NCBI GenBank assembly: GCA_963720755.1 | Contig: CAVRGP010000011.1 | Coordinates: 800,001-864,000 of the forward strand | Direction of reading: 5' to 3' | Length of the DNA stretch: 64,000 nt | From: an uncultured Chloroflexia bacterium | Lineage (GTDB): Bacteria; Chloroflexota; Limnocylindria; Limnocylindrales; CSP1-4 | Part shown: piece after piece, positions 5,842-54,658 of the stretch | How the letters are laid out: every line of letters starts with the position of its first letter | Position numbering within the stretch: position 1 is the first letter of the stretch | The notes under the pieces: generated by a model | Told to the model about the DNA's origin: nothing | The model's database searches: none | What the model saw: only the letters and a program-made list of their open reading frames with translations | Position numbers and translations under genes: made by a program

Positions 5842-5853
5842 GAACGGGTGTTC
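5842..5853. promoter_or_regulatory. LexA SOS box upstream of uvrA
   Basis: GAACgggtGTTC, 18 nt upstream of the -10 TACACT (5872-5877), the same spacing as at uvrB. Confidence 0.8.
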
Positions 5854-5883
5854 GGTTTGTCCAGAGTCCGTTACACTTCGTCT

Positions 5884-8946: not shown

Positions 8947-8991
8947 CCGCATCCTGGCGCACCGGGACCGATCGGCGGCTAGCATAGGCAG

Positions 8992-9444: not shown

Positions 9445-9450
9445 GCACGG

Positions 9451-9807
9451 ATGACCGACGGACGATCCGTCGGGGCGCCGCGCCGGGCACCGCGTCACGA
9501 ATACCCCGCCATCGACGATCTCGGTCTTGCAGCCGCGCGGCTGGCCGATCGGCTCCTGGGCGCCGCCCGCGAGATCGGGTCCGATCGCTGGATCGCGTAC
9601 CTCGAGCCCTTGCCGGACCACCTGCGCGATGACGAGCCGATCGCCCTGCGCACGACGGCGATCCGCTGCCGAGCGGCGTACGGGGTCAAGGACTCGATCC
9701 GCGATGTCCTGCCGGCCGAGTTGACCGAGCCATTCCTCGACGCGGTCGACCGGCTCCTCAGGGAGCTGAACCGGGCGCGGGCCGCAGACCGAGCTCTGCA
9801 GGACTGA
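9451..9807 (+). CDS. hypothetical helical protein
   Basis: Follows the previous gene by 6 nt, with GC3-rich codons. Confidence 0.6.
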   Translation: MTDGRSVGAPRRAPRHEYPAIDDLGLAAARLADRLLGAAREIGSDRWIAYLEPLPDHLRDDEPIALRTTAIRCRAAYGVKDSIRDVLPAELTEPFLDAVDRLLRELNRARAADRALQD

Positions 9808-11389: not shown

Positions 11390-11451
11390 CGTCGGATCGT
11401 CGCTGACAGCCCTCATCCGCGGATCACCCGTGCTTGCCGTAGCATCGAGAT

Positions 11452-31838: not shown

Positions 31839-31915
31839 GGCGACGTGGTGAAGTGGCTCAACACGGAGGTCTGCAAAACCTCTATTCACCGGTTCGAATC
31901 CGGTCGTCGCCTCCA
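31839..31915 (+). tRNA. tRNA-Cys(GCA), integration target
   Basis: Cloverleaf, loop CTGCAAA, TCCA end. Its 3' 45 bp are duplicated at 41821-41865. Confidence 0.95.
31871..31915 (+). repeat. att core, tRNA side
   Basis: CTGCAAAACCTCTATTCACCGGTTCGAATCCGGTCGTCGCCTCCA, starting at the anticodon loop, identical to 41821-41865. Confidence 0.95.
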
Positions 31916-31958
31916 CTTCCACTCACAAAACAGCACTCCCGGGCCGGAGTGCGCCCTC

Positions 31959-31982
31959 CGCTGTTAGCATCGCGTTAGCATC
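31959..31982 (+). repeat. putative integrase arm-type sites (tandem GTTAGCATC)
   Basis: CGCTGTTAGCATCGCGTTAGCATC, 23/24 identical to 41703-41726. Confidence 0.75.
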
Positions 31983-32084
31983 GCGACCGCCGAACGGGTG
32001 TACAGTGATGGACGTAAAGCGGCGCGCCACCCGCGAGAACGAGTGACGCGCCATACGGAAGTCCTGACTAGGAGGACACCCGCG

Positions 32085-33308
32085 ATGGCAAAGTCTACAG
32101 GCCCGACATCCGCAAAGAAAAACGCCCGCCGGCGTTCCCCGGGGGAGGGGAGCGTGTATCCGTTCCGGGGCGGCCATGCGGGAGCACTCGCCTGGACCGA
32201 TCCGGACGGAACCCGACACCGTCGGACCGTGACCGCCCCGACCAGTGCCGGGGTCCGTGACAAGCTCGACGATCTTCGGCGCGAACTCCGGCTCGGCACC
32301 CTCACGTCGGCATCACAAGCCCTGACCGTCGGCGACTACCTGACGGAATGGATCGAGCGCCACCGGACATCCGTCCGCCCGTCGACGTGGCGCTCTGCCG
32401 AACAGCACGTCCGGGTGTACCTCATTCCGGCGCTCGGCCGTATCCCGCTGGCCCGACTGTCGGCCGACGATGTGGCGACCGCCCTTGCGGCCTTTCAGGC
32501 GACCGGGCGGCCCGTCCGTGCGCCGAAACGAACCCGGGGCCGGCAGAATGCCGGCGGGCTGTCTCCGCTGACGGTCCGCCATATCCGGGCGACACTCCGG
32601 CAAGCACTCGGGGCCGCCGTCATCGCGGGCAAGGCGCAACGGAACGCCGCCGCCGACTCGAGGCCGCCGTACCTGCCGCACCGACCGATTACCTATCTGT
32701 CAACGCGCGACCTGGCGCGACTGCTCGACGCGACCCGGGACGATGAGTTCGGCCCCCTGTACGCCCTGGCCGCAACGACCGGGCTCCGGCTCGGGGAGCT
32801 GCTCGGGCTGGAATGGCCGGACGTGGCCGATGGTCGCCTGACCGTCCGCCGGTCACTGGCCCGGGCACAGGGGAACGGCTGGGAACTCGCCCAACCGAAG
32901 TCGGCACGATCCCGGCGGACGATCCCGCTACCCGCTCGAGCCCGTCAGGCCGTGGAGACACAACGAACCCGGCAACGGTTCGCACAGAATGCCGCCGGGT
33001 CGGCATGGCAGGACCGCGACGGGCTCGTCTTTACTGATGCCGTGGGGCGACCGTTGGCCCCGGAGCGGGTGTCCCGGGAGTTCGGCAAGGCTCGCGACGC
33101 CGCCGGCGTCCCGCGTATCCGGTTCCATGACCTGCGCCACAGTGCCGCGACCGCCCTACTGTCGGCCGGCGTCCCGTTGGCCGTCATCTCCGAGTGGCTC
33201 GGTCACTCCGGTATCGCGATCACCGCGTCCGCGTATGCCGCAGTCGTGCCGGAACTTCTGACCGATGCCGCCGACGCCATGGACCGCGCCCTAGGGGGCG
33301 ATTCATGA
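32085..33308 (+). CDS. tyrosine recombinase / phage-type integrase
   Basis: RBS AGGAGG and ATG 32085. N-terminal RR.PGEGSVY, then TGLRLGEL, PKS, FHDLRHS, LGHS and catalytic Y (TASAY). Confidence 0.95.
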   Translation: MAKSTGPTSAKKNARRRSPGEGSVYPFRGGHAGALAWTDPDGTRHRRTVTAPTSAGVRDKLDDLRRELRLGTLTSASQALTVGDYLTEWIERHRTSVRPSTWRSAEQHVRVYLIPALGRIPLARLSADDVATALAAFQATGRPVRAPKRTRGRQNAGGLSPLTVRHIRATLRQALGAAVIAGKAQRNAAADSRPPYLPHRPITYLSTRDLARLLDATRDDEFGPLYALAATTGLRLGELLGLEWPDVADGRLTVRRSLARAQGNGWELAQPKSARSRRTIPLPARARQAVETQRTRQRFAQNAAGSAWQDRDGLVFTDAVGRPLAPERVSREFGKARDAAGVPRIRFHDLRHSAATALLSAGVPLAVISEWLGHSGIAITASAYAAVVPELLTDAADAMDRALGGDS

Positions 33309-33983: not shown

Positions 33984-34199
33984 ATGGCATCCACGGACCG
34001 CAAGCCGCAACGCATCTACGTCCCGCTCCCGGCTGACGTGCTCGACGCTGTCCTGGTCGCCGCCTGGCGCGAGGATCGCGAACCGCAAGCCCAGATCGTG
34101 CGATACGTCACGACGGCGCTACGGCACGACGGCTACCTCGCCGAGCCCGACCCCGAAGACGCTCCGCCCTGGCTGGCCGTCGACAAGGCCGGACGATGA
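33984..34199 (+). CDS. small ribbon-helix-helix-like DNA-binding protein
   Basis: KPQRIYVPLPADVLDAV..AWRE beta-alpha-alpha pattern, coupled to the next gene. Confidence 0.55.
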   Translation: MASTDRKPQRIYVPLPADVLDAVLVAAWREDREPQAQIVRYVTTALRHDGYLAEPDPEDAPPWLAVDKAGR

Positions 34200-34444
34200 G
34201 CGACCGACTGGCCGCGGCCGTCGCCGAACTCGTCGAGGCGCTCCGCGAGGACGTGCGGGCCGAGACCGTCGACGCCCCGGACCGGCTGCTATCGGTCGAT
34301 GAGGCCGCGGCGCTGCTCGGCATCGGCCGATCCGTTCTGTATTCCCTCATCGGGTCGGGGCGTATCCGCTCGATTTCGGTCGGACGGCGGAGGCTCATTC
34401 CCTCGAGCGCGGTCCGCGAGTTCGTCGACGAGGCCGGACGTTGA
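34196..34444 (+). CDS. excisionase-family HTH protein
   Basis: LLSVDEAAALLGIGRSVLYSLIGSGRIRSISVGRRRLIP. Confidence 0.88.
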   Translation: MSDRLAAAVAELVEALREDVRAETVDAPDRLLSVDEAAALLGIGRSVLYSLIGSGRIRSISVGRRRLIPSSAVREFVDEAGR

Positions 34445-35321: not shown

Positions 35322-35536
35322 CCACAACCCCGAACACGATCCGACAAGACCCAGCCCGAACCGCATTGGAGCGGGAACGAGCGCGAGCCCGCTACGCCCG
35401 ACTGCGAGAGGAACTCGGCCTGCCGCCGCTCACGCGCCGCCGGGTCGATCGGTGGCGCGGTGGGCGCTTCCTGGCCGTCGACTCCAAGCGAACGCTGATC
35501 TTTGATGCCGAGCCTGGCCGCGGCATTCCGGGATGA
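35318..35536 (+). CDS. hypothetical basic protein
   Basis: RBS AAAGGGA, ATGA overlap with the previous gene. Confidence 0.45.
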   Translation: MTTTPNTIRQDPARTALERERARARYARLREELGLPPLTRRRVDRWRGGRFLAVDSKRTLIFDAEPGRGIPG

Positions 35537-36629
35537 ACTCGAGCCTCGGATTCAGTCTCTGCCTCCTCCGCCCGATCTGACCTTGGTGAGCGTGATGTCG
35601 GCGGAACCCTATGTCTCGATGGAGCCGTGTCCGAAGAAGTGTGGCCAAGGCTGGCACCTGCCGCCGCACGCTCATCTCAGGCTCACGAATGGCGGCATGA
35701 CAGCGCCGGAACTCGACCACCTGCGAGGGATGAACGCCGCCGACTTGCTCGCGATCGACATCCCGGCGCTGCGCCAGGCGGTCGCAGGACTCCTGCCCGA
35801 GGGACTGGGAGTGATCGGGGCTCCCCCGAAGGCTGGCAAGAGCGTCCTCGCCTATCAACTGGCCGTCGAACTCGTCTTCGGCGGAGAGGTCCTCGGGGTA
35901 AAGGCCGAGCGCCGGGCCGTCCGCTACTACGCACTCGAGGACGGCCAGCGCCGGTCCCAGAGTCGTATCCGGGAGCTTCTGAAGGGACGCGGGGCCGGAC
36001 TGGTCAGTCTCGACCTCCAGTGGACGGCACCGAAGCTCGGCGGGCCACTCGAGGAGGAGGTCGGGATCTGGCTCGACGCCCATCCCCTCGGCGTCGTGAT
36101 CATCGACGTCCTGTCGAAGGTCCGAGCCGCCGGCAAGGCGGGGCTCAATGCCTACGATGAGGACTACGCGGCCATCGTCGGGTTGCACAACGAAGCGCGT
36201 CAGCATCCGGGTTCGACCATCCTCCTCGTCACCCATGACCGGAAGGCAGGCTCGGACGACTGGATGACGCGGATCACCGGGACCAGGGGTGTCACCGGGG
36301 CCGCCGACTTCGTCATCTTCATCTCCCGCAAGCGGACCGAGATGCTCGGCACCATCTTCGTGACCGGACGGGACATCGAGGACAAGGCATTCGACGTCGA
36401 GTTCACCGGGACGAGTTGGCGACCGGCCGACATCGACCTGCTCATCGGCACCAGGTCCCGGACACGCCAGACGATCTTCAACTGGGTCAAGGAGAACGGC
36501 CCAGCCTGGCAGAAGGCGATCGCCGAGGGGACCGGATTGCCGCTGACGACCGTCCACGCGCGGGTCCATGACATGGTCGGGGACGAGGAACTGGTCGGTG
36601 GACCGAGTGGGTATGTCGTCCCGGACTGA
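35505..36629 (+). CDS. RepA-like (AAA_25, SF4-type) replicative helicase with C-terminal HTH; start uncertain
   Basis: GAPPKAGKS Walker A, ALED, VVIIDVL Walker B, LVTHDRK, GRDIED, QKAIAEGTGLPLTTVHARV. Confidence 0.85.
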   Translation: MPSLAAAFRDELEPRIQSLPPPPDLTLVSVMSAEPYVSMEPCPKKCGQGWHLPPHAHLRLTNGGMTAPELDHLRGMNAADLLAIDIPALRQAVAGLLPEGLGVIGAPPKAGKSVLAYQLAVELVFGGEVLGVKAERRAVRYYALEDGQRRSQSRIRELLKGRGAGLVSLDLQWTAPKLGGPLEEEVGIWLDAHPLGVVIIDVLSKVRAAGKAGLNAYDEDYAAIVGLHNEARQHPGSTILLVTHDRKAGSDDWMTRITGTRGVTGAADFVIFISRKRTEMLGTIFVTGRDIEDKAFDVEFTGTSWRPADIDLLIGTRSRTRQTIFNWVKENGPAWQKAIAEGTGLPLTTVHARVHDMVGDEELVGGPSGYVVPD

Positions 36630-36930: not shown

Positions 36931-37887
36931 ATGCCGGGGCTGTCCGTTGACAGGAGGCAGGAACATCGGTGGATGGATTACCGGTGGGTAGGCGACGGCG
37001 TTGCAAGGGATTCCGAGGGTGAGGTGTGGGAGGTCGTCAGCTCGCCCGATGGGTCGTGGGCGATCCTCACGAGGGACGCTGACGACACGTATGAGCATGT
37101 CGGTTGCCGGACGTCCGGTCCTGGCCGGTACCGGCTCGTCGAGGGTTCCGCGACCCGCTGCCAAGGTCAGCTCGATCGACCCAATAACGCCCGTGTCGCC
37201 AACAATGGAACCTTTCTGGTGAGTGACTGGCTGTTCGGGGACGACCGAGCGTGTCGCGTTTGCGTCTTTGACAAGGCGGGCACGCCGCTTATCGACGGTC
37301 GATATGCTGCGAATGTCCTTGCCACGGCCCTATCCGATGACGGTCGGTTCGGGGCGCTGCAGCTCGCAAGCAACCCCGACGCCCCGGACTTCGATGATCT
37401 GGCGATCGTGTGGGATCTCGAGCTTGGGATCACCCTTTGGTCGAAGCAGCTGGAGGGCGGGCCGGCGCGAACAATCGTGCTCGACACGGCTGCCGGTGTT
37501 CTCCGGTCCATGACCAGCCGTGACGGATGGGTGGAGTACGACCTTGCCACGGGCAGCACTGACATCGCGGCATTGAGGGATACCTTCCTCGAACAAGGGA
37601 ACGGGTTCGAGGTCTTGGATCTCGTGATGGACGAGGTGGCGACCGGGTCGGTTCGTGAGGACCGCGCTGCCGGTCTCATCGCGTACTGCGAAGCGGCCGC
37701 GGCCAAGCTTCAGCCTTACCCAAGCCACCAGGCTCGTGCGCTTCGAGTGGCCGGCGAGATTGCCGAGACGCAACATGATCCAGTCACCGCCCTGCGATAT
37801 TGGGACCGCGCCTTGGCTATCGACCCGAAGGTGGGCGTAAGGATGCGAGCCAAGGCATTGAGGGCATCCGTGGTCACACAGGACTGA
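36931..37887 (+). CDS. hypothetical cargo protein (beta-repeat N-terminus, C-terminal TPR)
   Basis: SSPDG/LSDDG blade-like repeats, ALRYWDRALAIDPKVG TPR-like end. Confidence 0.65.
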   Translation: MPGLSVDRRQEHRWMDYRWVGDGVARDSEGEVWEVVSSPDGSWAILTRDADDTYEHVGCRTSGPGRYRLVEGSATRCQGQLDRPNNARVANNGTFLVSDWLFGDDRACRVCVFDKAGTPLIDGRYAANVLATALSDDGRFGALQLASNPDAPDFDDLAIVWDLELGITLWSKQLEGGPARTIVLDTAAGVLRSMTSRDGWVEYDLATGSTDIAALRDTFLEQGNGFEVLDLVMDEVATGSVREDRAAGLIAYCEAAAAKLQPYPSHQARALRVAGEIAETQHDPVTALRYWDRALAIDPKVGVRMRAKALRASVVTQD

Positions 37888-37920: not shown

Positions 37921-38991
37921 ATGGGAATCCGGTACCGCAAGAGCATCAGGCTTGGCGGAGGTGTCCGACTCAACCTCAGCAAGTCCGGAATGGGGATGTC
38001 CGCCGGTATCCCCGGGTTCAGAGTCGGCACCAACTCGTCGGGGCGGATCACGCGGTATATGGGCATTCCGGGGACCGGGCTGTATAGCCGATCCTCAGTC
38101 GGGTCCTCGCCCAGAGGGTCGAACACGAGGGCTCGACCTGCGTCATCCGGGCGTCGCCCGCAGTCGATACCAGCCAGCGAGGCTACGAACCTGCTGCCCA
38201 AGCCCGGTTGGCTTTCGGGAGCCGGCGAGAAGCGCTACTACGAGGGGGTCCAGGCGTACCTCAAGAGTGACTACGCATCCGCGCTGGCGGCATTCGCCGC
38301 GTGCCTGGTGGCCGAACCGAAAGCGGCCTCTGCCCATCTATTCGCGGCGCTCTGCGTCGGCAAACTCGATGGCCCAGACGTGGAGCAGATCCAGCACCTG
38401 GAGGCTGTGGTGGGTGGCTCCGACCCCATCCCGGATCGGCTTCAGACTAAGTACCTGCCTCCCGGCTTCGTCGAGCTCACGTTGACGGTCAAGATCACCG
38501 ACATGATCTGGGGCCAAGCGCCAGTTGGCTCGGTCGGGGCGACTTTGATGCTGGCTGAGTTGTACCAGGCCGGCGGTCGTCTCGAGGAAGCACTCGGCCT
38601 GATCCAGCAACTGCACGAAGCAGAACCGGCAGATACGACGATCCGGCTTTCCTTGGCCGACCTCTACTTTGCCGACCAGGACTTCGAAGGGGTCCTTGAT
38701 GCGGCGTCGTCCGCCATCAACGACTCTGATACTGGGGTCGCACTTCTCCACCTGCGGGCTGCCGCGCTCGTCCAGCTTGGCCACATGGACGGAGCACTCG
38801 ATGCCTTCCGTCAGGCGTTGGCAAAGACTTCCAATCGCGATCCGGACCTCCTCAAAGTCGTCCGGTACGATCGGGCTCTGGCCTACGAAGCCGCAGGCCA
38901 GCCCCGGAAAGCACGGATCGACCTAGAGAAGATCATGGCGACAGACCCTTCATATCTCGACGTGCGCGAGCGGCTTCAATCACTGCAATGA
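37921..38991 (+). CDS. DUF4236-domain + TPR protein
   Basis: MGIRYRKSIRLGGGVRLNLSKSG..GIPGTGLY N-terminus, multiple TPR helices. Confidence 0.8.
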   Translation: MGIRYRKSIRLGGGVRLNLSKSGMGMSAGIPGFRVGTNSSGRITRYMGIPGTGLYSRSSVGSSPRGSNTRARPASSGRRPQSIPASEATNLLPKPGWLSGAGEKRYYEGVQAYLKSDYASALAAFAACLVAEPKAASAHLFAALCVGKLDGPDVEQIQHLEAVVGGSDPIPDRLQTKYLPPGFVELTLTVKITDMIWGQAPVGSVGATLMLAELYQAGGRLEEALGLIQQLHEAEPADTTIRLSLADLYFADQDFEGVLDAASSAINDSDTGVALLHLRAAALVQLGHMDGALDAFRQALAKTSNRDPDLLKVVRYDRALAYEAAGQPRKARIDLEKIMATDPSYLDVRERLQSLQ

Positions 38992-39010
38992 CATCCGTAA
39001 AGGCGGTCAG

Positions 39011-39229
39011 TCACGGCCCCCGTCTCGCCGCCCGCTCCGCCTCGATCCACTCCGACCCAACCGACCAATACTCGCGATCGCGAGCCAGCCCCCGACGCAC
39101 CGCCTCGGCCTCCCAGGCAGCGCACCATCGCTCGGCCGTCTCGACCGGCATCCCGGTCCCGGCCAGCGTGTTCCGGACGGCCGCACGACGGGCCTGGTGG
39201 ATGCGCTCGGGATCGGCTCGGCGTGGCAT
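39011..39229 (-). CDS. 72-aa Trp-rich hypothetical protein (copy 1)
   Basis: 58/72 aa identical to 42525-42752, with mostly conservative changes. Confidence 0.8.
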   Translation of the reverse strand: MPRRADPERIHQARRAAVRNTLAGTGMPVETAERWCAAWEAEAVRRGLARDREYWSVGSEWIEAERAARRGP

Positions 39230-39250
39230 GGTGGGAGGGCACGGCGAGGC

Positions 39251-39279
39251 CGTGACGGGTTTGGGTGGCGGAGTACGCT
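39251..39279 (+). promoter_or_regulatory. conserved promoter, copy 1, divergent from the 72-aa gene
   Basis: CGTGACGGGTTTGGGTGGCGGAGTACGCT. -10 TACGCT lies 6 nt before GTG 39286. Near-identical copy at 42775-42802. Confidence 0.65.
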
Positions 39280-39285
39280 TCGAGT

Positions 39286-39987
39286 GTGACCAAACTCATC
39301 GCTGCAATCCTCGCGTCCGTGTGCCTGGCGGCCTGCGCCACAGGGGGATCGGTCTCAACGTCCGTCCTGCAAACGGTCGCCTCCGCCGACACTGGAGGCC
39401 CCGACGCGACATCGCTCCCCGAGGTCACGTCGCCTCCTCAGCCGGCATTCGATGTCATCCACCTCAAGGGCAAAGGCAAGAAGGTCGCCAAATTCAGCAT
39501 CCCCGAGGACTCGCCTGCCATTGCCGTCATCACCCACAAGGGCACGAGCAACTTCATCGTGCATTCGGTGGATAGCAGCGGCGACATCGTCACCGGTCTG
39601 GTGAACGAGATCGGCAATTACAGCGGAACGGTGCTCTTTGACAGCGGCTACGGGGAACATTCCGTTGCATTTGAGATCGACGCGGATGGAACCTGGACGA
39701 TCAACGTCAAGCCTGTCACGGCCGCGACGGCCTGGAACCCGGCGAAGCCCCTCAAGGGTCAGGGCGACGACGTCTACGTCGTGTCGCCACCGTCGAGCGG
39801 CTTGGTCACCCTGGATCTCACCTACAAGGGCAAATCCAACTTCATCGTCCACGCGTTTTCTCCTGATGGACCGGAGGGACTTGCCAACGAGATCGGCAAC
39901 TTCAAGGGACAGGTCCTCCTGCCAGACGGAACGTTCCTCATCGAGGTGACCGCCAACGGCGGAGTATGGACGATGGTCCCCGGATGA
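39286..39987 (+). CDS. predicted lipoprotein with two tandem beta-domains
   Basis: MTKLIAAILASVCLAAC lipobox, internal repeat KG.SNFIVH..GL.NEIGN..G.VL twice. Confidence 0.8.
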   Translation: MTKLIAAILASVCLAACATGGSVSTSVLQTVASADTGGPDATSLPEVTSPPQPAFDVIHLKGKGKKVAKFSIPEDSPAIAVITHKGTSNFIVHSVDSSGDIVTGLVNEIGNYSGTVLFDSGYGEHSVAFEIDADGTWTINVKPVTAATAWNPAKPLKGQGDDVYVVSPPSSGLVTLDLTYKGKSNFIVHAFSPDGPEGLANEIGNFKGQVLLPDGTFLIEVTANGGVWTMVPG

Positions 39988-40036
39988 GCATCGAGAGATA
40001 ACCCGCAGCTAAGCGCCCAACCGCTGGCCTGACCTC

Positions 40037-40103
40037 GCCTCGGCTCCGGTCCCGGACTCGCGATCCCGTGTCGCGCGGCCAGCCTGTCCGGGCCGACCGG
40101 GGC
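40037..40103. repeat. cargo-boundary hairpin, copy E (diverged, complete)
   Basis: CCTCGG-CTC-CGG-T-CCCGGAC ... GTCCGGG-CCG-A-CCGGGG. Homologous to 41319-41385 with compensatory changes. Confidence 0.65.
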
Positions 40104-40107
40104 TACG

Positions 40108-40545
40108 TCACGCTGACAGCCGCTCGCCGATCCGACGCGCGAGTTCCGCGACGAACTCGCGATCGACACGCGGTCCAGCCTCGTCGCTTTCATACCACGG
40201 CACGTCGGCCGAGGTGCCGGGGTGGCGGCAAAAGAGATGCTCGTGGAAATGCGCCGCGCCAGTCCCGATGACGGCCGCGAAGACGAACTCGGGGCCTACC
40301 TCAGCGCGCAGCGCCTGGGCTAGTCGGGTGCGAAGTCGCCCGAGCGCGGCGGCCTCATCCTCGGATAGGTCGGCGACATAGCCGAGATGGCGATCGCTCT
40401 CGATAATGAGATACCCGAGCGGGGCGGTCCCGTCGTCTCCGGGCGGAGCATGCCAGACCCAGAAACCATCGAGACGGGCGATCCGCTCGCCACCCAGTGG
40501 TCCCTCGCCGCGGTGCTTGGCGCAGATCAGGCAATCTGCCGTCAT
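40108..40545 (-). CDS. HIT-family protein
   Basis: DCLICAKH, GYLIIES.RH, AHFHEHLF (HxHxH), RBS GGGAG. Confidence 0.82.
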   Translation of the reverse strand: MTADCLICAKHRGEGPLGGERIARLDGFWVWHAPPGDDGTAPLGYLIIESDRHLGYVADLSEDEAAALGRLRTRLAQALRAEVGPEFVFAAVIGTGAAHFHEHLFCRHPGTSADVPWYESDEAGPRVDREFVAELARRIGERLSA

Positions 40546-40578
40546 CGACTTCGCTCCCTACGGTCCGGGGTTCCATTC

Positions 40579-40610
40579 TCCCGTACTCGCGATCCCGCGT
40601 CATGCGGCCA
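40579..40610. repeat. cargo-boundary hairpin, copy F (central part only)
   Basis: TCCCGTACTCGCGATCCCGCGTCATGCGGCCA, 28/32 identical to 40050-40081. Confidence 0.6.
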
Positions 40611-40870
40611 TCAACACGGTCGACGCCTGTGTCGCCACCGATGATTTTTGCGGCAACGCGAACGTGTGGCCGTTGACCGCATTTGCAGTGGTTACCGTCG
40701 GGGCCGGCGCGGTGGCGGCGGGGGTGGTCGCCGTTCGCGCTACTCGGTAGCCGCCCTGGTGTTATTGGCGCACGCTCGCCAAGGCCAGTATGACCACGCC
40801 CGGAGTGGTGGTCGGATCGCGTCACGTCGATCCGATTGCGTGTCGCACCCTCAACCGTCAGGCTGCATCC

Positions 40871-41308
40871 ATGCGGCAGATCCGGGAGCTGGCGCCGAAC
40901 GAGATCGAACGGGTCGGTGCCGTGCTCGGTCTGGCCCGCCTCGGGCAGGGCGATGGCTACTACCTGATTGCATGGGAGGACGATGAGCCGCTTGGCCACG
41001 CTCACCTGGCCCTCACCGACCCACCCGAACTCCAGGATGTCTCGGTGCGTCCTGAGTATCGGCGGCAAGGCATCGCGACGGCCCTGGCCGGCGCGGCCGA
41101 GCGGGCGGCGGTCGCCCGTGGATCCGCCCGACTCCGACTTTCGGTAAGCGTCGACAACAACGCGGCGCTGGCACTGTATCGCCACCTCGGCTACTGCGAC
41201 GTCGGGGTTCCGCCCAGACGGGTGCACGGCACCATCCGGATCCGCACCGGCACGCTTGAGGTCGACGACACGCTACTCACCTTGGAGAAGTCACTCGTCC
41301 CCACCTAG
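40871..41308 (+). CDS. GNAT acetyltransferase
   Basis: VSVRPEYRRQGIATAL, LSVSVDNNAALALYRHLGY. ATG 40871 lies 6 nt after CAGGCT. Confidence 0.88.
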   Translation: MRQIRELAPNEIERVGAVLGLARLGQGDGYYLIAWEDDEPLGHAHLALTDPPELQDVSVRPEYRRQGIATALAGAAERAAVARGSARLRLSVSVDNNAALALYRHLGYCDVGVPPRRVHGTIRIRTGTLEVDDTLLTLEKSLVPT

Positions 41309-41385
41309 TCTCACGCGACCCCGGCCCCGCGTCCGGGCCGACGATCCCGCCGTCGTGCGGCCAGTCGAGCCCGGAGCGACCGGGG
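41307..41385. repeat. cargo-boundary hairpin, copy A (complete)
   Basis: CCCCGG-CCC-CGC-G-TCCGGGC-CGAC ... GTCG-A-GCCCGGA-GCG-A-CCGGGG, starting at the GNAT stop codon. Confidence 0.8.
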
Positions 41386-41403
41386 CGGTGTAGGCTGACC
41401 CTC

Positions 41404-41637
41404 ATGAACCTCCTGCGCGCGATCGCCAGGCCACTGGTGCTCGCGGCCGTGGTCGGCTGGACGGCGCTGGTCCTGCTCGCGCAGGCGTTCAAAGGGTCGA
41501 GCGTCGGCGGCCCTGCCTGCCGCACGGACCCGAATTGCGGTGAGGTGCTCTGGATCCCCGTGGCAGCATGGCTTGGGGGTTGTCTTGTCATCCTCGTGAT
41601 TGGCTATTGGATCCGGCACCGAGGCAAGGCGGACTAG
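41404..41637 (+). CDS. small two-TM membrane protein
   Basis: Two hydrophobic helices around a Cys-pair loop. TAGGCT -10 lies 7 nt upstream. Flanked by hairpins A and B. Confidence 0.7.
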   Translation: MNLLRAIARPLVLAAVVGWTALVLLAQAFKGSSVGGPACRTDPNCGEVLWIPVAAWLGGCLVILVIGYWIRHRGKAD

Positions 41638-41643
41638 CCTGAG

Positions 41644-41700
41644 GCGTCCGGGCCGACGATCCCGCCTACGTGCGGCCCGTCGAACCCGGAGCGACCGGGG
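41644..41700. repeat. cargo-boundary hairpin, copy B (left end missing)
   Basis: 53/57 identical to 41329-41385. Confidence 0.85.
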
Positions 41701-41702
41701 GT

Positions 41703-41726
41703 CGCTGTTAGCATCGAGTTAGCATC
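41703..41726 (+). repeat. putative integrase arm-type sites, distal end
   Basis: CGCTGTTAGCATCGAGTTAGCATC, same orientation as 31959-31982. Confidence 0.75.
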
Positions 41727-41820
41727 AGGGGCGGATATCCCCGGATTCTGAACCCGGTCGGAACCCCGATTCGTGCGTGAATCCGTCGCCGATAGACGCC
41801 AATGGACGCGGCAGACGAGA

Positions 41821-41865
41821 CTGCAAAACCTCTATTCACCGGTTCGAATCCGGTCGTCGCCTCCA
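41821..41865 (+). repeat. att core, distal copy (3' half of tRNA-Cys)
   Basis: 45/45 identical to 31871-31915. Confidence 0.95.
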
Positions 41866-41878
41866 ATTCCTGAGCGTG

Positions 41879-41904
41879 AAACCGGGCCTTCTGGTCCGGT
41901 TTTC
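41879..41904 (+). terminator. Rho-independent terminator-like hairpin after the distal att
   Basis: AAACCGGGCC-TTCT-GGTCCGGTTT followed by TC. Confidence 0.6.
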
Positions 41905-42073
41905 CTAATTCACTGGTAGCAATCGTGGTAGCGACCGGCGTTCTGGGCGGTCCCGTCATAAGCAAAGATGCGGCTGGACGGGGGGTTTCGGGCCGTGACG
42001 CGCTCCCACGGGCGGAGCCGAGATCAGCGCTGGTGGTGCTTTAGGGCGCTCCGTCGTGTCGGCTGCTCATCTC

Positions 42074-42451
42074 CTAGCCGTCGACGTAGGTCGCGACGTG
42101 ACAGTCGTCGGCCGGGGCCACTCCGATGCCACAGCCGATCAGGTAGGTGCGCTCGGATCCGTCGGCGAGGCCGAGGACGACCACGAGGGTCATACCGCCG
42201 CCGCCAGAGGTCGGGTTGTACGGTTCTCCGTTGGACAGGCGGTAGTCGAGGGTGTAGGCACGACTGGTGGCAACCTTGCCGTGATCGGGTTCGGCGTTGT
42301 CGAGGAGCCGCTCGGCATAGGCGACGAAGGGTGTCGTGCCGTCGGCCACCTGGTCCCGTACGGGGTAGCCGCCGATTCGGACGATCGGCGGCGAACATCC
42401 GGCCAGGAGAACGACGGCGACGAGAGCGATGCGCAACCGGTTCTTCCTCAT
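42074..42451 (-). CDS. predicted small lipoprotein
   Basis: MRKNRLRIALVAVVLLAGC lipobox. Confidence 0.7.
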   Translation of the reverse strand: MRKNRLRIALVAVVLLAGCSPPIVRIGGYPVRDQVADGTTPFVAYAERLLDNAEPDHGKVATSRAYTLDYRLSNGEPYNPTSGGGGMTLVVVLGLADGSERTYLIGCGIGVAPADDCHVATYVDG

Positions 42452-42524
42452 GGTCTCGGAGTAGAGCACGGTGCCGGCCCTCACGTCACTAGGTCATTCC
42501 CTGCAGGCGAGTGGGCGAAGGTCA

Positions 42525-42752
42525 TCACGAAGTGATCGGCGACCGTCTCGCCGCCCGCTCCGCTTCGATCCAGTTCCAGCCCGCGTCCCAGTAGTCCCGG
42601 TCCCGCGCCAGCCCTCGCCGCTCAGCGTCCGCCTCCCAGGCTTCGCACCAGCGCTCGGCCGTCTCGATCGGCATCCCGGTGCCGGCCAGCGTGTTCCGGA
42701 CGGCCGCACGACGGGCCTCGTGGATACGCTCGGGATCGGGGTGGCGGGTCAC
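42525..42752 (-). CDS. 75-aa Trp-rich hypothetical protein (copy 2)
   Basis: Paralog of 39011-39229. -10 TAGTCT lies 7 nt before the GTG. Confidence 0.8.
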   Translation of the reverse strand: MTRHPDPERIHEARRAAVRNTLAGTGMPIETAERWCEAWEADAERRGLARDRDYWDAGWNWIEAERAARRSPITS

Positions 42753-42774
42753 GGGAGCCAGACTATCGACCCAT

Positions 42775-42802
42775 CGTGACGGGTTGGGTGGCGGAGTAGG
42801 CT
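42775..42802 (+). promoter_or_regulatory. conserved promoter, copy 2
   Basis: CGTGACGGGTTGGGTGGCGGAGTAGGCT, one indel and one substitution versus 39251-39279. Confidence 0.65.
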
Positions 42803-42859
42803 CCTGCCAACGAGCTCACGAGTCGATCGCAGCAGACGACCCAATACGGGAGAGGTCCA

Positions 42860-43372
42860 ATGCAGGACACGGCATCTCCGCCTTCACAACCTGTCGTTGC
42901 CCCGCCGCGGACGTTCGACTGGGCTGGGTTGGTGATCCTTCTGGCGGGTGGCCTGGCGATCCTCGGATCCTTCCTGCCCTGGATCCAATCGACCTCGCTT
43001 AGCGGCAGCTTCGGTCCGACCGGGCTTGACCTCGGCCGCGACGGCGTCATCTCGATCGTCCTCGGCATCATCATGGCCCTGTTCGCGATCGCGATCCTTG
43101 CCCGGAGCGGGCGACGAAACGTGGCGCGGGTCGGGGCGCTGATATGCGCAGTCGCGCTCGGCTGGTTCGCATGCATCGATATCGTGCATTTCAACAGCGG
43201 CATCGCGTTCCTTTACACCAGCATCGACGGCAGCCTCTACTTCATCGGGTCGTTGGGCCCTGGCCCGATCGTCGTAGCCTTGGCCGCCGCTCTTGGGGTG
43301 GTGGGTGTATTCCTGCCCGGTGGCCCCGAGGCTGTGGCTGGCCCGAGTGCCCAGCAGGCGCCACCCGGCTAG
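42860..43372 (+). CDS. four-TM membrane protein
   Basis: RBS GGAGAGG, ILGSFLPW motif, four hydrophobic helices. Confidence 0.75.
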   Translation: MQDTASPPSQPVVAPPRTFDWAGLVILLAGGLAILGSFLPWIQSTSLSGSFGPTGLDLGRDGVISIVLGIIMALFAIAILARSGRRNVARVGALICAVALGWFACIDIVHFNSGIAFLYTSIDGSLYFIGSLGPGPIVVALAAALGVVGVFLPGGPEAVAGPSAQQAPPG

Positions 43373-43533
43373 GTGTGCGGGTTCTGCCACAAGCCACTTA
43401 GTCCTGCCTGGATAGCAAGTGCGACCAGTGCAAGACCCCCTACGCCGAGATTCCGCCAGTTCTTCGTGCCACGCAAAGGCAGGAACCTGGCCGAGCTGCC
43501 GCCACGTAACCCCCTGCTAGGCGCCCCCAGCCC

Positions 43534-43596
43534 AGTCTCACGCGGCCCCCGGCTCCGCGTCCGGGCCGACGATCCGGCCGGGTGCGGCCAGTCGAG
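43534..43596. repeat. cargo-boundary hairpin, copy C (right end missing)
   Basis: AGTCTCACGCGGCCCCCGGCTCCGCGTCCGGGCCGACGATCCGGCCGGGTGCGGCCAGTCGAG aligns to 41307-41369. Confidence 0.8.
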
Positions 43597-43891
43597 TCGC
43601 ATCCGGATCGAGGCGGGCTCGCAGCGCGTCTCTTCGTTCGAGCCAGAGTCGACGCCCCAGTCCGTGGCCGCGGTGCGACGGCGCGATGATGAAGAACCCC
43701 ATGAACCCGAACCGGCCCGCGTAGGAGACGATCGAGCCGCCCCCGACCAGCTCGCCATCGATCTCGGCGGCGACGAAGCCCTCGGGGTCGGTCGCCCAGA
43801 AGATCTCGGCGTCGTTGCGTCCTGGATTCCAGCCCTCGTCCGCAGCCCAATCGACGAGGATGTCCAGCTCGTCGCGCTTCATGCGGCGCAC
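43538..43891 (-). pseudogene. 3'-truncated GNAT acetyltransferase (YitH-like)
   Basis: WAADEGWNPG, DPEGF, FGFMGFFIIAPSHRGHGLG. The frame runs into hairpin C after ~98 aa. Confidence 0.7.
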
Positions 43892-44008
43892 GATCAGGTC
43901 CGCACTCCCGTCGGGATCATCCCACGAGCGACTCGGTCCCGAGGGTCCCGATGGACCAGCCTCGAGATGCCGCCCCGGATGACGACCGGATCGGCGGGCG
44001 ACCCAGGG

Positions 44009-44284
44009 TCAGGACGCCCGGAGCATCCTTCGGCGGAGTTGTCGCACGGCGAGGCCCGACATGGCCACGATCATCGCGAAGACCGGTCCTGCCATGTTGC
44101 CGGCCATCGCGTGGAGCAGCACCATGACGACGAACATGCCCCAGAGCACCGTGCCCATGGCCAGGAGGACGTTTCGAGACAAATGTTCCCCTCCAGCAGC
44201 GAGGTTCGTGGCGACGCACCGCGTCGATGTCCCCGAACGACCGCTCCGTCCCGGCCACCGTACCCGATAGTCCCGGCAACGCAA
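44009..44284 (-). CDS. small two-TM membrane protein (start uncertain)
   Basis: VLLAMGTVLWGMFVVMVLL and PVFAMIVAMSGLAV helices. Confidence 0.5.
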   Translation of the reverse strand: MRCRDYRVRWPGRSGRSGTSTRCVATNLAAGGEHLSRNVLLAMGTVLWGMFVVMVLLHAMAGNMAGPVFAMIVAMSGLAVRQLRRRMLRAS

Positions 44285-44452
44285 GGCTCGATGGTCCCGA
44301 TGTGGTTCCCGGGGGCACCAGGAACCGGACCGGTCCCGGCCTTCTGGCGTCCTGCGGCCCCGGCCCGTCGCTGAATATCACGTCGCGGACCGCCTCCAAA
44401 CGCACTATGCTCCGCGGGTGTCCGGCGTGTTGCCGGCGAATCTGGAGCGGGC

Positions 44453-45217
44453 GTGGCCAGTATCGTCAGCGTCCACTCGTTTCGCGGCGGCACCGGGAAG
44501 TCGAACACGACCGCGAACCTGTCTGCATTGATCGCCAATCGGGGCCTTCGGGTCGGCGTCATCGACGCGGACATCCAGTCCCCCGGGATCCACGTCCTAT
44601 TCGGCCTGTCGGGCGATGACGTCCATGCGTCGCTGAACGATTTCCTGTGGCATGACCGCCCGATCCGTGACGTGGCGATGGACGTGACCGATCGAGTCGG
44701 GGTGACCGGAGGCGGACGTCTCTTCCTGATCCCATCGAGTATGGAGCCGGGCGAGATCACCCGCGTCCTGCGTGAGGGGTACGACGCCCAGCGATTGACC
44801 GGCGGTCTGCGCGACCTCGTGACCCAGCTGGACCTCGATGTCCTGTTCATCGATACCCATCCGGGGCTCAACGAGGAGACGCTCCTCTCACTCGTCATCT
44901 CGGACGCGTTGCTGATCGTGATGCGACCCGACCGCCAGGACTTCGAGGGCACGGGCATCACCGTACGCGTCGCCAGGGAGCTCGAGGTTCCGCGGATCAG
45001 CATCCTGGTCAACAAGACCCCAACGGATCTTGATCTCGGGTCGGTCCGAGATCGGGTCGCCGCGACCTATGGCTGCGAGGTCGCGGCTGTATTGCCGCAC
45101 TCCGACGCGTTGATGAGTCTCGCCAGTGAGGGTGTCTTCTCCCTTCGGTTCCCAGACCATCCACTGACCGAGGCGTATCGACGCCTGGCCGAGCACGTGA
45201 TCCCGGTCACGTCCTGA
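44453..45217 (+). CDS. MinD/ParA-family ATPase
   Basis: SFRGGTGKS deviant Walker A, VIDADIQSPG, IDTHPG, LVNK. Confidence 0.88.
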   Translation: MASIVSVHSFRGGTGKSNTTANLSALIANRGLRVGVIDADIQSPGIHVLFGLSGDDVHASLNDFLWHDRPIRDVAMDVTDRVGVTGGGRLFLIPSSMEPGEITRVLREGYDAQRLTGGLRDLVTQLDLDVLFIDTHPGLNEETLLSLVISDALLIVMRPDRQDFEGTGITVRVARELEVPRISILVNKTPTDLDLGSVRDRVAATYGCEVAAVLPHSDALMSLASEGVFSLRFPDHPLTEAYRRLAEHVIPVTS

Positions 45218-52564: not shown

Positions 52565-52651
52565 GCCGGAGTGGCGGAACTGGCAGACGCAGCGGACTTA
52601 AACTCCGCGGCCCGCAAGGGCGTTCGAGTTCGAATCTCGGCTCCGGCACCA
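52565..52651 (+). tRNA. tRNA-Leu(TAA)
   Basis: Cloverleaf, loop CTTAAAC, long variable arm, CCA. Confidence 0.95.
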
Positions 52652-52741
52652 CCTTTGCAGCATAAGTTGCCTGGCGCCTGGGCCTGCTCGGCCGTCACGG
52701 CTATCGGCCGCCATACGTGACCGTCTCGAGCCCGGGAGTGC

Positions 52742-52772
52742 AGAAGAGGCCGCCCGTCTGGCGGCCTCTTCT
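52742..52772. terminator. bidirectional terminator-like hairpin
   Basis: 13-bp perfect stem AGAAGAGGCCGCC / GGCGGCCTCTTCT between the tRNA and the convergent phosphoesterase. Confidence 0.75.
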
Positions 52773-52788
52773 ACGCAGGTGCGCTCGG

Positions 52789-53976
52789 TCAGTGCGCGAA
52801 GAATTCCTTCATCGAGGTGACTTGGGCGTTGTCCGAGGCGTTACCGAGGTATGGAAGGTTCCAGTTCTCCTCGATCGTCCGGAGCAGCGAGTAGTGGTTG
52901 TACGGCGTGTCACTGGTGTAGTGACGCGCGCCGTGCCTCGCGATCACGATCGCCGGGATCTGCCCGCCTCCGTAGGTGCACTCTGTTGCGTCGCCAGGGC
53001 AGTCCAGGATCAATGGGTGAACCACACCGGCGCTGTCGGTGTAGGTGGCTGGATTGCCGTGCTTGTCCAAGAACTGATAGCCGTCCGGCAGGATCGGTGA
53101 ATCGCAGCAGCCGGCGGCGCTGTCCCACTGGCCGTTATCCGTGTTCGCTCCGTTGAAGTCGTTCTCGTCGGTCAGGACGAAGATCGCGCTGTTCCCGGTC
53201 CAGGCCTTCGAGGCCATGATCTGGGTGACGGCTGTCTTCACGAAGGCGTCAGCCTTCTGCTTGAGCGACGCGTCGTTGGCGTCGTCCTTCGCCGAACCGT
53301 ACGGGCATGGCGTCCCGTCGTTCGCGCCGAGCTGGACGTAGATCCCGCCGTGCATGTCATTGCACTGATTCGGGGTGATCCAGACAAAATCGGCGACCCG
53401 GTTGTGCTTGAGATCGGAAGCGAAGTCCGAGTACGGCTTGATCTTCGCTCGTCGCGCCGGGTTGTTGCGGATGTCGTCGAACAGGATGAACGGATTGTGC
53501 TTGCTGACGTAGAGCTCATTCGTGCCCGGCGCCTGGTCCCCAAGGTAGCCGGCTGACGGCATCGACTCCATGTAGGCCGCCCAGCTGTGATGGCTGGCCT
53601 CGAGCTGGTCGACGAGGTTCGTGTGATCGAACCGATGGGTCGGCTGGTCATCGTTGACGAACCAGTTGCTCCCACTGATCGCGGCGACGTAGTTCGGCAG
53701 ACTCGGGTGCGTGACGCCGTAGTAATTGGTCGCCAGGCCATACGTGTCCGCCAGCGAGTTGATGAACGGTGCGTTCTTGTTTCCGATGACCGTCGAGTAG
53801 GAATGGTTCTCGAGCATGATCACGAACACGTGCTTGAGCGCGCCGTTCTGACCGTGTCCGCTATCCGAACCCCGGCCCTCCGACGAGTGTCCTAACGTCG
53901 AGCCGACACTCGTGACGGCAATGAGCGCGAGCGCTGCGGCTGACGCGCCAAGCCGCATCCTGCGACTGATCCTCAT
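52789..53976 (-). CDS. secreted phosphoesterase (acid phosphatase/phospholipase C family)
   Basis: RBS GGAGGAGG, signal peptide, HVFVIMLENHS, THPSLPNY, KHNPF, NDMH, DEND, YNHYSLLRTIE. Confidence 0.88.
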   Translation of the reverse strand: MRISRRMRLGASAAALALIAVTSVGSTLGHSSEGRGSDSGHGQNGALKHVFVIMLENHSYSTVIGNKNAPFINSLADTYGLATNYYGVTHPSLPNYVAAISGSNWFVNDDQPTHRFDHTNLVDQLEASHHSWAAYMESMPSAGYLGDQAPGTNELYVSKHNPFILFDDIRNNPARRAKIKPYSDFASDLKHNRVADFVWITPNQCNDMHGGIYVQLGANDGTPCPYGSAKDDANDASLKQKADAFVKTAVTQIMASKAWTGNSAIFVLTDENDFNGANTDNGQWDSAAGCCDSPILPDGYQFLDKHGNPATYTDSAGVVHPLILDCPGDATECTYGGGQIPAIVIARHGARHYTSDTPYNHYSLLRTIEENWNLPYLGNASDNAQVTSMKEFFAH

Positions 53977-54289
53977 GAGACAGACCTCCTCCTCGTGACC
54001 TGAGCGATCGACCGGGTGCGTCGAACGGCGGGGCGCGGATGACGGTGGGTCCGGACGAGACGCGGAGGCGATCCGGTGCGCGACACCCGGCTCCCGGGGC
54101 ACTGGGCGACCCGGTCGTTCCCGGATGGTGCCATGGCCGAAGCGCGTCGGTTGGTCGATTCCGCAGAGTTCGCGACGATATGGGAGACGACCCGAGGTTC
54201 AACGCATATGACGTCGAAGGTTCCGGTGCGTTCGGGCACCGCTTTGCAGGGCGTCGGTCATCGTCACGAAACAGCGCATGTCCGTCGGC

Positions 54290-54420
54290 GACTTCCCGGG
54301 GTTCAGTGGACAGGGTTGACCGGCAACCCAGCGAATGGCCGTAGCCTCAGGTGTTGCCCGCTTGTCCTGAACACCTTGAGCGAGTTGACTCGGAGTCATA
54401 GCTGAGAGCGCGGCCGTGAA
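54290..54420 (-). pseudogene. possible IS3-family right-end remnant
   Basis: GACTTCCCGGGGTTCAGTGGACA resembles an IS3 terminal IR. Degenerate H..ALSY.TP.Q (OrfB C-terminus-like) upstream on the minus strand. Confidence 0.35.
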
Positions 54421-54658
54421 GGATCGCGGGTCGGTGCAACCTTCGGCTTCGGCGGCGTTCGAGTTCGAATCTCGGCTCCGGCACCAGATCGGCGACTGAT
54501 CGTGCCGACCTGACCAGCCACAGGCGTCCGGGCCGACGACTTCGTAACGTTCCGGTGACGAACGGATGTGACCATCGCAAAGATGACGGACGACGTTCCG
54601 TGGCTGGCGACGCGATGAAGCGACCAGCACGACTTTCAAGATATTCGAGACCGACGGT

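Follow-up and report, generated by a model that had tools for sequence, protein, structure and literature searches.

The stretch of DNA analysed here (64,000 nucleotides, nt; hereafter the window) belongs to a 3.0-Mb genome (G000) of an uncultured soil Chloroflexota bacterium, and it carries at tRNA-Cys a 10-kb integrated element whose cargo arm is an array of small genes delimited by co-oriented copies of an imperfect hairpin. Based on the comparison of this array with those of related genomes, it can be shown, at the level of sequence, that the structured repeat splits the cargo arm of the island into modules which assort independently and cross between species. We therefore describe it as an undescribed, integron-like, hairpin-delimited cassette architecture. 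Our preferred explanation for this behavior is site-specific recombination at the folded strand of the hairpin, to which we would give slightly less than an even chance of being correct.

To our knowledge, integrons, which depend on one enzyme family, are the only well-understood case in which single-gene cassettes delimited by hairpins are mobilised. The present family is relevant in this context, since an integron architecture (together with structural covariation) is found around a hairpin unrelated in sequence, in a largely uncultured phylum and habitat, and since cassettes move here between species and positions without any IntI. If the recombination is indeed site-specific, hairpin-guided gene capture would have evolved more than once (this being a second, independent invention), surveys based on attC models would miss part of the cassette metagenome, and the hairpin and its candidate recombinases would offer a handle for testing how tRNA islands assemble their cargo. 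A passive repeat would still show a small structured repeat modularising island cargo.

Structure and distribution of the hairpin

A repeat-family search of the window, together with the scores of a covariance model (CM) built on nine hairpin copies (R1, whose E-values are only rough), showed that the five repeats listed in a preliminary description of this DNA (E, F, A, B and C) are all real, lie at gene boundaries and point in the same direction. Not all of them are complete copies of the palindrome: E and A are complete (Table 1), with R1 bit scores of 78.5 (E 5.9e-13) and 71.0 (1.9e-11), while B (53.8 bits, 5.8e-8), C (29.2 bits, E 0.0055) and F (18.6 bits, E 0.77) are partial. The limits given earlier for E, B and F stand, and the starts of A and C move from 41307 to 41319 and from 43534 to 43546, respectively. 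Copy F, which is 88% identical to E over 32 nt, corresponds to nhmmer model positions 21-52, and in both F and C the 3' half has been replaced by unrelated sequence. When single sequences were folded as RNA and compared with shuffled sequences, E (z -2.8) and A (z -3.2) folded better than the shuffles, and B, F and C did not (z -0.2, -0.4 and -1.8). The placement of the repeats relative to the genes was read correctly from the start: copy A directly follows the stop codon of a GNAT gene (TAG, 41306-41308), A and B bracket a single open reading frame (ORF) of 77 amino acids (aa), and E and F bracket a single 145-aa ORF on the minus strand.

Copies E and A share one architecture, in which a 6-bp outer stem is followed by a 3x1 internal loop, a helix of 3 bp and a bulge, and then by a middle stem of 5-7 bp, a large internal loop (about 9x9) and an inner stem of 4-5 bp. 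Across the family the hairpin is about 67-78 nt long. The consensus of both alignments used (95 and 150 copies) starts with CCCCGG and finishes with CCGGGG, and the centre consists of short inverted arms about a 4-6-nt loop. The length of the terminal loop ranges from 4 to about 30 nt, whereas the unpaired nucleotides flanking the inner stem hardly vary, even across unrelated cargo. The compensatory changes noticed at the outset between E and A are real and hold across the hairpin family: in the 95 aligned copies (an alignment fitted to the model, from genomes which are related and not independent), 91.9% of the cells are standard pairs and 14 of the 20 pairs have changes on both sides, with 69 double-change cells against 16.2 in shuffles. 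None of 500 shuffles matched the observed value of any measure, and pairing fell to 28-50% in slid controls. Mismatched pairs are biased towards wobbles (87 G:T/T:G against 36 A:C/C:A), and this excess points to a given strand being the one that folds, as RNA or as single-stranded DNA (ssDNA), rather than to a double-stranded dyad. No Rfam family matched positions 38500-44500 at E <= 1.

Within the genus, R1 gave 243 matches in 63 of 131 genomes, with 1-23 matches per genome. The genomes are mostly incomplete metagenome-assembled genomes, one per species and not independent of each other, and gene calls outside the window are heuristic (based on third-position GC content, GC3). A class-wide sample gave matches in 8 of 151 genomes, all from one family and from 3 of 35 genera; leaving out the genome of the window, this means 7 of 44 genomes in its own family and none of 106 in the four other families. 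In 80 loci of G000 and its genus relatives, 157 matches at E <= 5e-4 were obtained; in these loci, arrays contain up to 8 copies and adjacent hairpins point in the same direction in 70 of 71 pairs, the sole switch occurring across a tRNA-Lys flanked by an island on either side. The quartiles of hairpin spacing are 615, 1375 and 2555 nt (a median of about 1.4 kb), and 20 of the 57 intervals of up to 3.5 kb contain one ORF, according to the crude gene calls. The cargo is highly diverse, with no Pfam family in more than 2 of 82 inter-hairpin ORFs, and includes GNAT, DinB_2, lipases, SnoaL, Kelch and peptidases.

The hairpin is not scattered behind housekeeping genes. Besides the array of the window, G000 contains one further copy with fragments (contig C15, 445132-445369 and about 445937), located downstream of tRNA-Pro at a distance of 0.9 kb, as well as a piece of 18 nt beside a tRNA-Leu islet (positions 54522-54539 of the window), so that its copies are confined to three tRNA-linked loci and a genome-wide repetitive extragenic palindrome (REP) was discarded as an explanation. 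The apparent strand-specific folding would also suit a single-strand origin or priming signal for the replication or transfer of the excised island, which codes for an AAA_25 replication-type ATPase. Arrays with up to 8 copies, one per cargo module, and copies located in remnants and insertions without replication genes speak against such a role, which we consider the least probable of the explanations discussed here.

Cassette reassortment and the position of the junctions

The clearest case of reassortment comes from a locus (L035) in the genome of a sister species (G147). The window order is lipoprotein, E, 145-aa gene (minus strand), F, GNAT, A, and L035 contains the same three genes (with the high identities given in Table 1) in the order lipoprotein, hairpin, X, GNAT, hairpin, 145-aa gene (minus strand), hairpin. 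The L035 hairpin located after GNAT is a chimera, with the A-type 5' half that accompanies GNAT and the E-type 3' half that accompanies the 145-aa gene, and the switch between both types falls within GCGGCCAG, 8 nt which they share; this chimera folds no better than shuffles (z -0.27). The 3' half missing from F is present in L035. Related genomes thus differ in their cargo order, which the preliminary description had proposed to compare, and a chimeric hairpin occupies the junction. The cassettes common to the window and L035 are 94.7-94.8% identical at the DNA level, compared with 85-86% for the core flanks (contig C15 of G000), and therefore they must have crossed between the species after these diverged. 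The insertion that contains them in G147 has 6.6 kb (5189-11789) and separates convergent genes instead of lying at a tRNA, with an imperfect direct repeat of 14 nt on its flanks; its counterpart in G000 is a contiguous site (C15:85328-85341), at a chromosomal place other than that of the window array.

A second comparison involves the sister island L129 (genome G104), which is 96.4% identical to the window across 2083 nt (two TPR genes and s72, the small array-specific gene discussed below) and then continues with other cassettes: a gene with four transmembrane segments (4-TM) occupies the place of the lipoprotein gene of the window, and the two-segment (2-TM) cassette is found in a different context, terminating in a 5' half-hairpin. 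Among 150 aligned hairpins, 8 pairs have only the upstream flank in common, 6 pairs only the downstream flank, and no pair has both (a shared flank being at least 85% identical over at least 60 nt, so that orthologues diverged past 85% are uncounted). Joins like those of L035 were also found alongside the window arrangement in soil contigs (runs X1 and X3); here, as below, the soil evidence consists of assembled Logan contigs of four runs from one study, in which uncovered parts carry no information.

In order to place the junctions, mismatch column profiles and manual alignments were used, since BLAST end-points are unusable for this purpose (the alignments run through whole hairpins). The mismatch profiles change over in the segment that links the GCGG-CCAG core to the 3' strand of the middle stem, and 7 of 12 informative junctions, judged by eye, fall at model positions of about 45-60; a further two hairpin pairs were uninformative. 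Partial copies detected by nhmmer behave similarly, with 5' halves that stop at positions 40-52 and 3' halves that start at 30-46. Given that junctions and half-copy ends cluster centrally and yet spread to the edges, the junction region is a central hot zone and not a single point.

Candidate enzymes, passive repeats and known cassette systems

Several observations lead us to favour site-specific recombination: the conservation of unpaired bases, the covariation with its strand bias, the co-orientation of the hairpins irrespective of gene direction, hybrids that join within 8 shared nt, and half-sites that break centrally. In the mechanism that we propose, the folded top strand would act as an attC-like recombination site, and a cassette would be formed by the 3' part of one hairpin, the gene (or genes) and the 5' part of the next hairpin. 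The strands would be exchanged in the stretch that separates the inner stem (GCGG-CCAG) from the 3' strand of the middle stem. This stretch forms the inner edge of the basal helix, and attC sites cross over in the same relative place. The enzyme would act in trans and could be either the island-type tyrosine integrase or the host Xer pair, with s72 as a possible accessory factor. Taken as a whole, this would amount to an IntI-independent analogue of integrons, in which an ssDNA hairpin unrelated to attC allows the capture, reordering and interspecies passage of single genes within tRNA islands, by means of a non-integron tyrosine recombinase acting in trans and perhaps assisted by s72; we put this complete scheme forward tentatively, as possible rather than probable.

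As the preliminary description had noted for this stretch, IntI and canonical attC ends are absent, and this is now extended to the genus: none of the 131 genomes contains a protein above the 265-bit cut-off of the integron integrase model TIGR02249 (the best hits, with about 88 bits, being on Xer-like C-termini), the window integrase itself scores 27.8 bits against this model, and the consensus of 95 and of 150 copies has no AAC/GTT boxes of the RYYYAAC/GTTRRRY type. Serine recombinases were not found in G144, G132 or G017, and the Y1 transposase associated with REP sequences (RAYT, PF01797) is missing from all five genomes tested, among them the four richest in hairpins. IS110 was considered as the enzyme and rejected, being present in one of five genomes, away from the arrays. 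A search of G000 with a 22-nt dif consensus gave no dif-like site with up to 6 mismatches.

A number of results weigh against site-specific recombination. There is no recombinase in or beside most arrays, nor is there a recombinase gene inside the 6.6-kb insertion of G147. The tyrosine recombinases of G147 and of G144 (92% complete, in 3 contigs, with 7 hairpins) are limited to two Xer-like proteins, far from the arrays, and the one serine recombinase of G147 is on another contig than the array. Three of the informative junctions lie at or beyond the 3' outer stem and two at or upstream of the 5' edge, the break between L129 and the window is about 20 nt outside a degenerate hairpin, and many copies lack the 5' outer strand alone. 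Additionally, single-sequence folds beat shuffles just modestly in this DNA of 68% GC, the covariation figures lean towards structure (because of the fitted alignment and the relatedness of the genomes), and cargo genes show 63 same and 56 opposite directions relative to the hairpins, a count which rests on the crude GC3-based calls. The earlier inference of a gene-capture system is retained in part: confined, modular cassettes bounded by hairpins are there, but active hairpin-based capture is still a hypothesis, given the lack of an array-linked recombinase and the spread of the junctions.

Part of these results would be expected if the hairpin were a passive structured repeat (a REP-like terminator, an insulator or an mRNA-stabilising hairpin) and the modules were shuffled by homologous or microhomology recombination between repeats of 67-78 nt, with no dedicated enzyme. 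Junctions at several positions in and around the hairpin, the lack of a linked recombinase and the persistence of arrays in genomes with Xer-like recombinases only are all in line with this explanation, the excess of G:U pairs on one strand suits RNA folding, and both E (between convergent genes) and B (ahead of attP/int) occupy plausible places for a terminator. Nevertheless, the hairpins have no T tail (no T runs were seen in the 3' flanks inspected, and there are no terminator-like sites in 38900-44000), and a terminator has no need for the near-invariant unpaired nucleotides beside the inner stem. Neither does a passive repeat account easily for hairpins that are co-oriented (70/71) while their cargo points both ways, or for half-copies which, joined to non-repeat DNA, break centrally. 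In the A/E chimera the switch falls inside a stretch of just 8 shared nt, and this is too short for an exchange of the RecA type. Finally, there is no RAYT in the five genomes tested and each genome has 1-23 tRNA-linked copies instead of hundreds of dispersed ones. On balance, we consider a passive repeat unlikely, although it is the main alternative to site-specific recombination.

Clustering of 826 predicted ORFs from 44 loci identified s72, a 72-aa protein, as the sole array-specific protein family. It is antisense to 56 of the 58 hairpins in s72 loci (as is every s72 match in the array loci compared), is found in 68 of the 131 genomes and tends to occur together with the hairpin (both in 44 genomes, hairpin only in 19, s72 only in 24, neither in 44; odds ratio 4.2), with copy numbers which also go together (e.g. 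28 s72 and 23 hairpins in G132). Its predicted fold is a three-helix bundle (pLDDT 87) with invariant Trp residues, for which we found no PDB fold match at E <= 0.001, no Pfam/NCBIfam match and no usable protein-atlas match. A genome may have up to 28 copies of s72, which are frequently fragmentary or interrupted by stop codons, and many genomes have a weaker paralogue, possibly chromosomal. The recurrence of s72, its antisense placement, its co-occurrence with the hairpin and the fact that some s72 start codons are about 40 nt from a hairpin (L041) could mean that the palindrome is an operator for the s72 protein, regulating divergent or adjacent cargo. However, most hairpins have no neighbouring s72, 19 hairpin-positive genomes have no detectable s72, the modelled s72 appears as a plain three-helix bundle without a match to DNA-binding folds, and the G:T wobble bias and the variable loop speak against a double-stranded dyad, which makes the operator role very improbable. 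Pairs of an ECF sigma factor and a PD40 beta-propeller, as well as cyclase/TPR genes, are also recurrent in loci with s72 and hairpins (L044, L048, L051, L059 and others); these were considered as array machinery and judged to be cargo.

The similarity with chromosomal integrons, whose cassette arrays carry attC sites such as the species-specific VCR-type repeats, and with clusters of attC sites lacking an integron integrase (CALINs), covers several features. In both cases there are co-oriented arrays of one lineage-specific imperfect hairpin spaced by one to few small genes, a structure maintained by compensatory changes, in which unpaired bases are conserved and the terminal loop is variable, and a diverse cargo (including GNATs and lipoproteins, and mostly of unknown function) which is reassorted at the strain level; the junction, near the inner edge of the basal helix on its 3' side, is also alike. 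The present arrays differ in having no IntI in any of the 131 genomes and no RYYYAAC/GTTRRRY ends, in the extra outer stem, in the absence of an orientation bias of the cargo, in a junction which is not unique, and in their location, inside tRNA-integrating islands and not next to intI/attI/Pc. Since IntI and the R-box ends were both searched for and neither is present, we do not file them as integrons or CALINs.

Two other systems deserve comparison. REPs and bacterial interspersed mosaic elements, together with their RAYTs, are likewise short, GC-rich, imperfect intergenic palindromes conserved within lineages; here there is no Y1/RAYT in five of five genomes, and 1-23 copies instead of hundreds, tRNA-island-linked and co-oriented. 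The pdif (Xer) sites are 28-bp double-stranded sites which flank modules in inverted orientation on plasmids, a dif-type site being made of two arms of about 11 bp and a spacer of 6-8 bp, whereas here we have hairpins of 67-78 nt, in direct orientation (70/71) and in chromosomal islands. What they have in common, as far as the accounts of pdif modules on Acinetobacter plasmids (PMC9455709, PMC7399989) go in the parts considered here, is that short sites bound gene modules, that these change context without a recombinase of the element (by means of the host tyrosine recombinases), and that the crossover is central. No published description of this hairpin was found among the papers listed on integron-like cassettes and palindromic repeats, on integrons in Limnocylindrales and on Xer/dif modules, supplements excepted.

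Carrier islands at tRNA genes

The hairpins are strongly associated with tRNA genes, since a tRNA is present in 25 of 52 hairpin-centred 8-kb loci, against 10.2% expected (the share of G000 lying that close to a tRNA; p about 5e-12), and among the tRNA-adjacent loci tested, 12 of 21 and 4 of 8 have their hairpins enclosed by partial tRNA repeats. Two configurations were observed: some islands repeat the 3' part of a tRNA that has the same orientation as the hairpins, and others repeat the 5' half of a tRNA lying antisense to them. The direction of the hairpins is in both cases from the intact tRNA to the partial copy. The second type comprises L034, L041, L098, L107, L120 and L127, whose islands lie 5' of the tRNA and duplicate its 5' 37-42 nt, with arrays antisense to it. 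Homologues of the window integrase were found in 30 of 131 genomes, many of them fragmented or with stop codons, and hairpins occur in 24 of these 30 genomes and in 39 of the 101 without an island-type integrase (odds ratio 6.4).

The carrier of the window array is the 10-kb element integrated between attL and attR at tRNA-Cys (Table 1), with the array in its cargo arm in the order lipoprotein, E, 145-aa gene (minus strand), F, GNAT, A, 2-TM gene, B. The location of the array inside an element integrated at tRNA-Cys had been overlooked in the preliminary description, as had the position of C, outside the element and beyond attR. An empty site exists in soil contigs of runs X1 and X4, which join an intact tRNA-Cys directly to position 41821 onwards, and hence the element is an insertion polymorphism in nature. 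One soil contig of the same runs passes through the partial tRNA copy (window positions 41821 and 41865) and runs into different sequence, and therefore the tRNA-Cys site must have other occupants in the same soils. The two direct 9-mer pairs, one at each end of the element, are probably arm-type integrase sites.

In its layout, the island resembles the tycheposons, elements for which accretion at tRNAs has been described (10.1101/2020.12.28.424599). According to the portion of that work considered here, the similarities are a tyrosine integrase by the tRNA, partial tRNA repeats, an Xis-like gene, a replication-type gene, a cargo arm, tandem or degraded copies and presence/absence polymorphism. 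Sub-modules delimited by hairpins and moving independently of the island, which are found here, do not appear in that same portion (10.1101/2020.12.28.424599), and the phylum is a different one. The carrier island therefore works like a tycheposon-type cargo element, a likeness based on layout and not on the hallmark genes of Prochlorococcus.

This relation with tRNA islands raises the question of whether the hairpin might be a cis-acting part of attP (a site for an accessory factor or for bending, located where the P arm has its outer edge), the arrays being the residue of repeated tandem tRNA integrations followed by deletion, as has been proposed for tycheposon islands. Arm-type-like repeat pairs adjoin the terminal hairpin in the window, L024 and L129, and in L079 this hairpin is 96 nt from attR; in these four loci the last hairpin, or the repeat pair, is about 100-135 nt ahead of the partial tRNA. 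Tandem partial tRNA repeats exist in L024, L031, L079 and L120, mini-islands hold little beyond a hairpin (L109 and L128, see below), the hairpins always point from the intact tRNA to its partial copy, and accretion at tRNAs is known from the tycheposons, in the portion of the account cited above. On the other hand, neither arm repeats nor tRNA fragments occur between the hairpins of an array (A is just 18 nt from the next start codon), the window has two tRNA-Cys-derived copies only, and the G147 array is at a site without tRNA. Accretion cannot yield chimeric hairpins or reordered cassettes either, and we regard a role of the hairpin as part of attP as improbable, site-specific recombination at the folded strand remaining our preferred reading.

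Table 1. Features of the tRNA-Cys island, its hairpin array and the stretch beyond its right end (window coordinates).
Feature	Position	Strand	Remarks
tRNA-Cys(GCA)	31839..31915	+	integration target; ARAGORN; Rfam tRNA 64.3 bits
attL core	31871..31920	+	50 nt from the 3' part of tRNA-Cys; self-BLAST identity of 98% with 41821-41870
Direct 9-mer pair, P' arm, arm-type-like	31961..31984	+	same 24-mer motif at 41704-41727
Island tyrosine integrase	31998..33308	+	Pfam Phage_integrase 1.1e-23, with SAM-like N domains
HTH_17 protein, excisionase-like	34196..34444	+	Pfam PF12728 5.4e-13
AAA_25 ATPase, replication-module-like	35502..36629	+	Pfam PF13481 1.1e-20
Two TPR proteins	36931-37887; 37921-38991 (with DUF4236)	+	Pfam; 96.4% nt identity to sister island L129
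s72, 72-aa three-helix protein	39011..39229	-	
Lipoprotein-like cargo	39286..39987	+	signal peptide with Cys; internal duplication; 88% aa identity in L035
Hairpin E	40037-40103	+	complete, 67 nt, E type; CM 78.5 bits; fold
145-aa cargo	40108..40545	-	family unconfirmed; 97% aa identity in L035
Hairpin F	40579-40610	+	5' half only; stops just past the GCGGCCA core; complete in L035
GNAT acetyltransferase cargo	40790..41308	+	Pfam PF00583 1.3e-18; 95% aa identity in L035
Hairpin A	41319-41385	+	complete, 67 nt, A type; CM 71.0 bits; fold
77-aa two-TM cargo	41404..41637	+	ORF; 84% aa identity in L129
Hairpin B	41644-41700	+	without the 5' strand of the outer stem; last hairpin of the array, abuts the P-arm repeats
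Direct 9-mer pair, P arm, arm-type-like	41704..41727	+	
attR, partial tRNA-Cys copy	41821..41870	+	right end of the island
Second s72 homologue	42525..42752	-	79% aa; older remnant outside the island
170-aa four-TM cargo	42860..43372	+	ORF; weak Holin_9 match; homologue comes after s72 in L129
Truncated GNAT	43538..43891	-	Pfam match to model positions 13-91 of 116; the final ~19 codons extend into hairpin C
Hairpin C	43546-43596	+	5' two-thirds only; homology stops 6 nt past the GCGGCCA core

Concerning the cargo of the window, both GNAT assignments made earlier are borne out by Pfam, whereas the HIT label given to the 145-aa gene was not supported, since Pfam/NCBIfam returned no significant match (the best being DcpS_C, with E 0.32) and only an HxHxH-like motif is visible. 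The stretch beyond attR, containing copy C, the second s72 homologue and the 4-TM gene, is tied to the island by a 268-nt repeat of 80% identity (39014-39279 and 42537-42802), and what it contains appears to be left over from a related element of greater age. The truncated GNAT located there reads its last codons, about 19, from the complement of hairpin C, and therefore the loss of the 3' part of C also cut this gene.

Some cassette start codons are preceded, 6-9 nt ahead, by a -10-like motif of the TAnnnT type, both in the window (39258-39286, 41386-41404 and 42781-42802) and in L035 (7089-7100, 8670-8695 and 11617-11630), and this proximity suggests leaderless transcripts. As general features of the family, neither a promoter-like motif after the hairpin (just 3-5 of 150 copies, a subgroup formed by the window and L035) nor the 5' flank motif of the window and L035 (just 12 of 150 copies) was retained.

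Direct 7-9-mer pairs beside the terminal hairpin and the tRNA are also present in L024 (about 4960-4985, minus strand) and L129 (4081-4105). The 7-mer of the window is the reverse complement of a 7-mer in the tRNA-Val element of L024, and L129 has a third variant of the repeat in a P arm which is otherwise 78% similar, with a different tRNA core. Two mini-islands of about 0.5-0.7 kb from tRNA to partial copy, with a hairpin and at most one small ORF (L109, 3557-4209, and L128, 3736-4479), may be non-autonomous elements or deletion remnants. The window itself contains a second, minimal islet (52565-54539), in which the last 33 nt of tRNA-Leu(TAA) (52619-52651) are repeated with 100% identity at 54454-54486. 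This islet has no integrase and contains one phosphoesterase-family gene (52789-54102, minus strand), and the 18-nt piece mentioned above, from the 5' part of the hairpin, follows the second tRNA-Leu copy.

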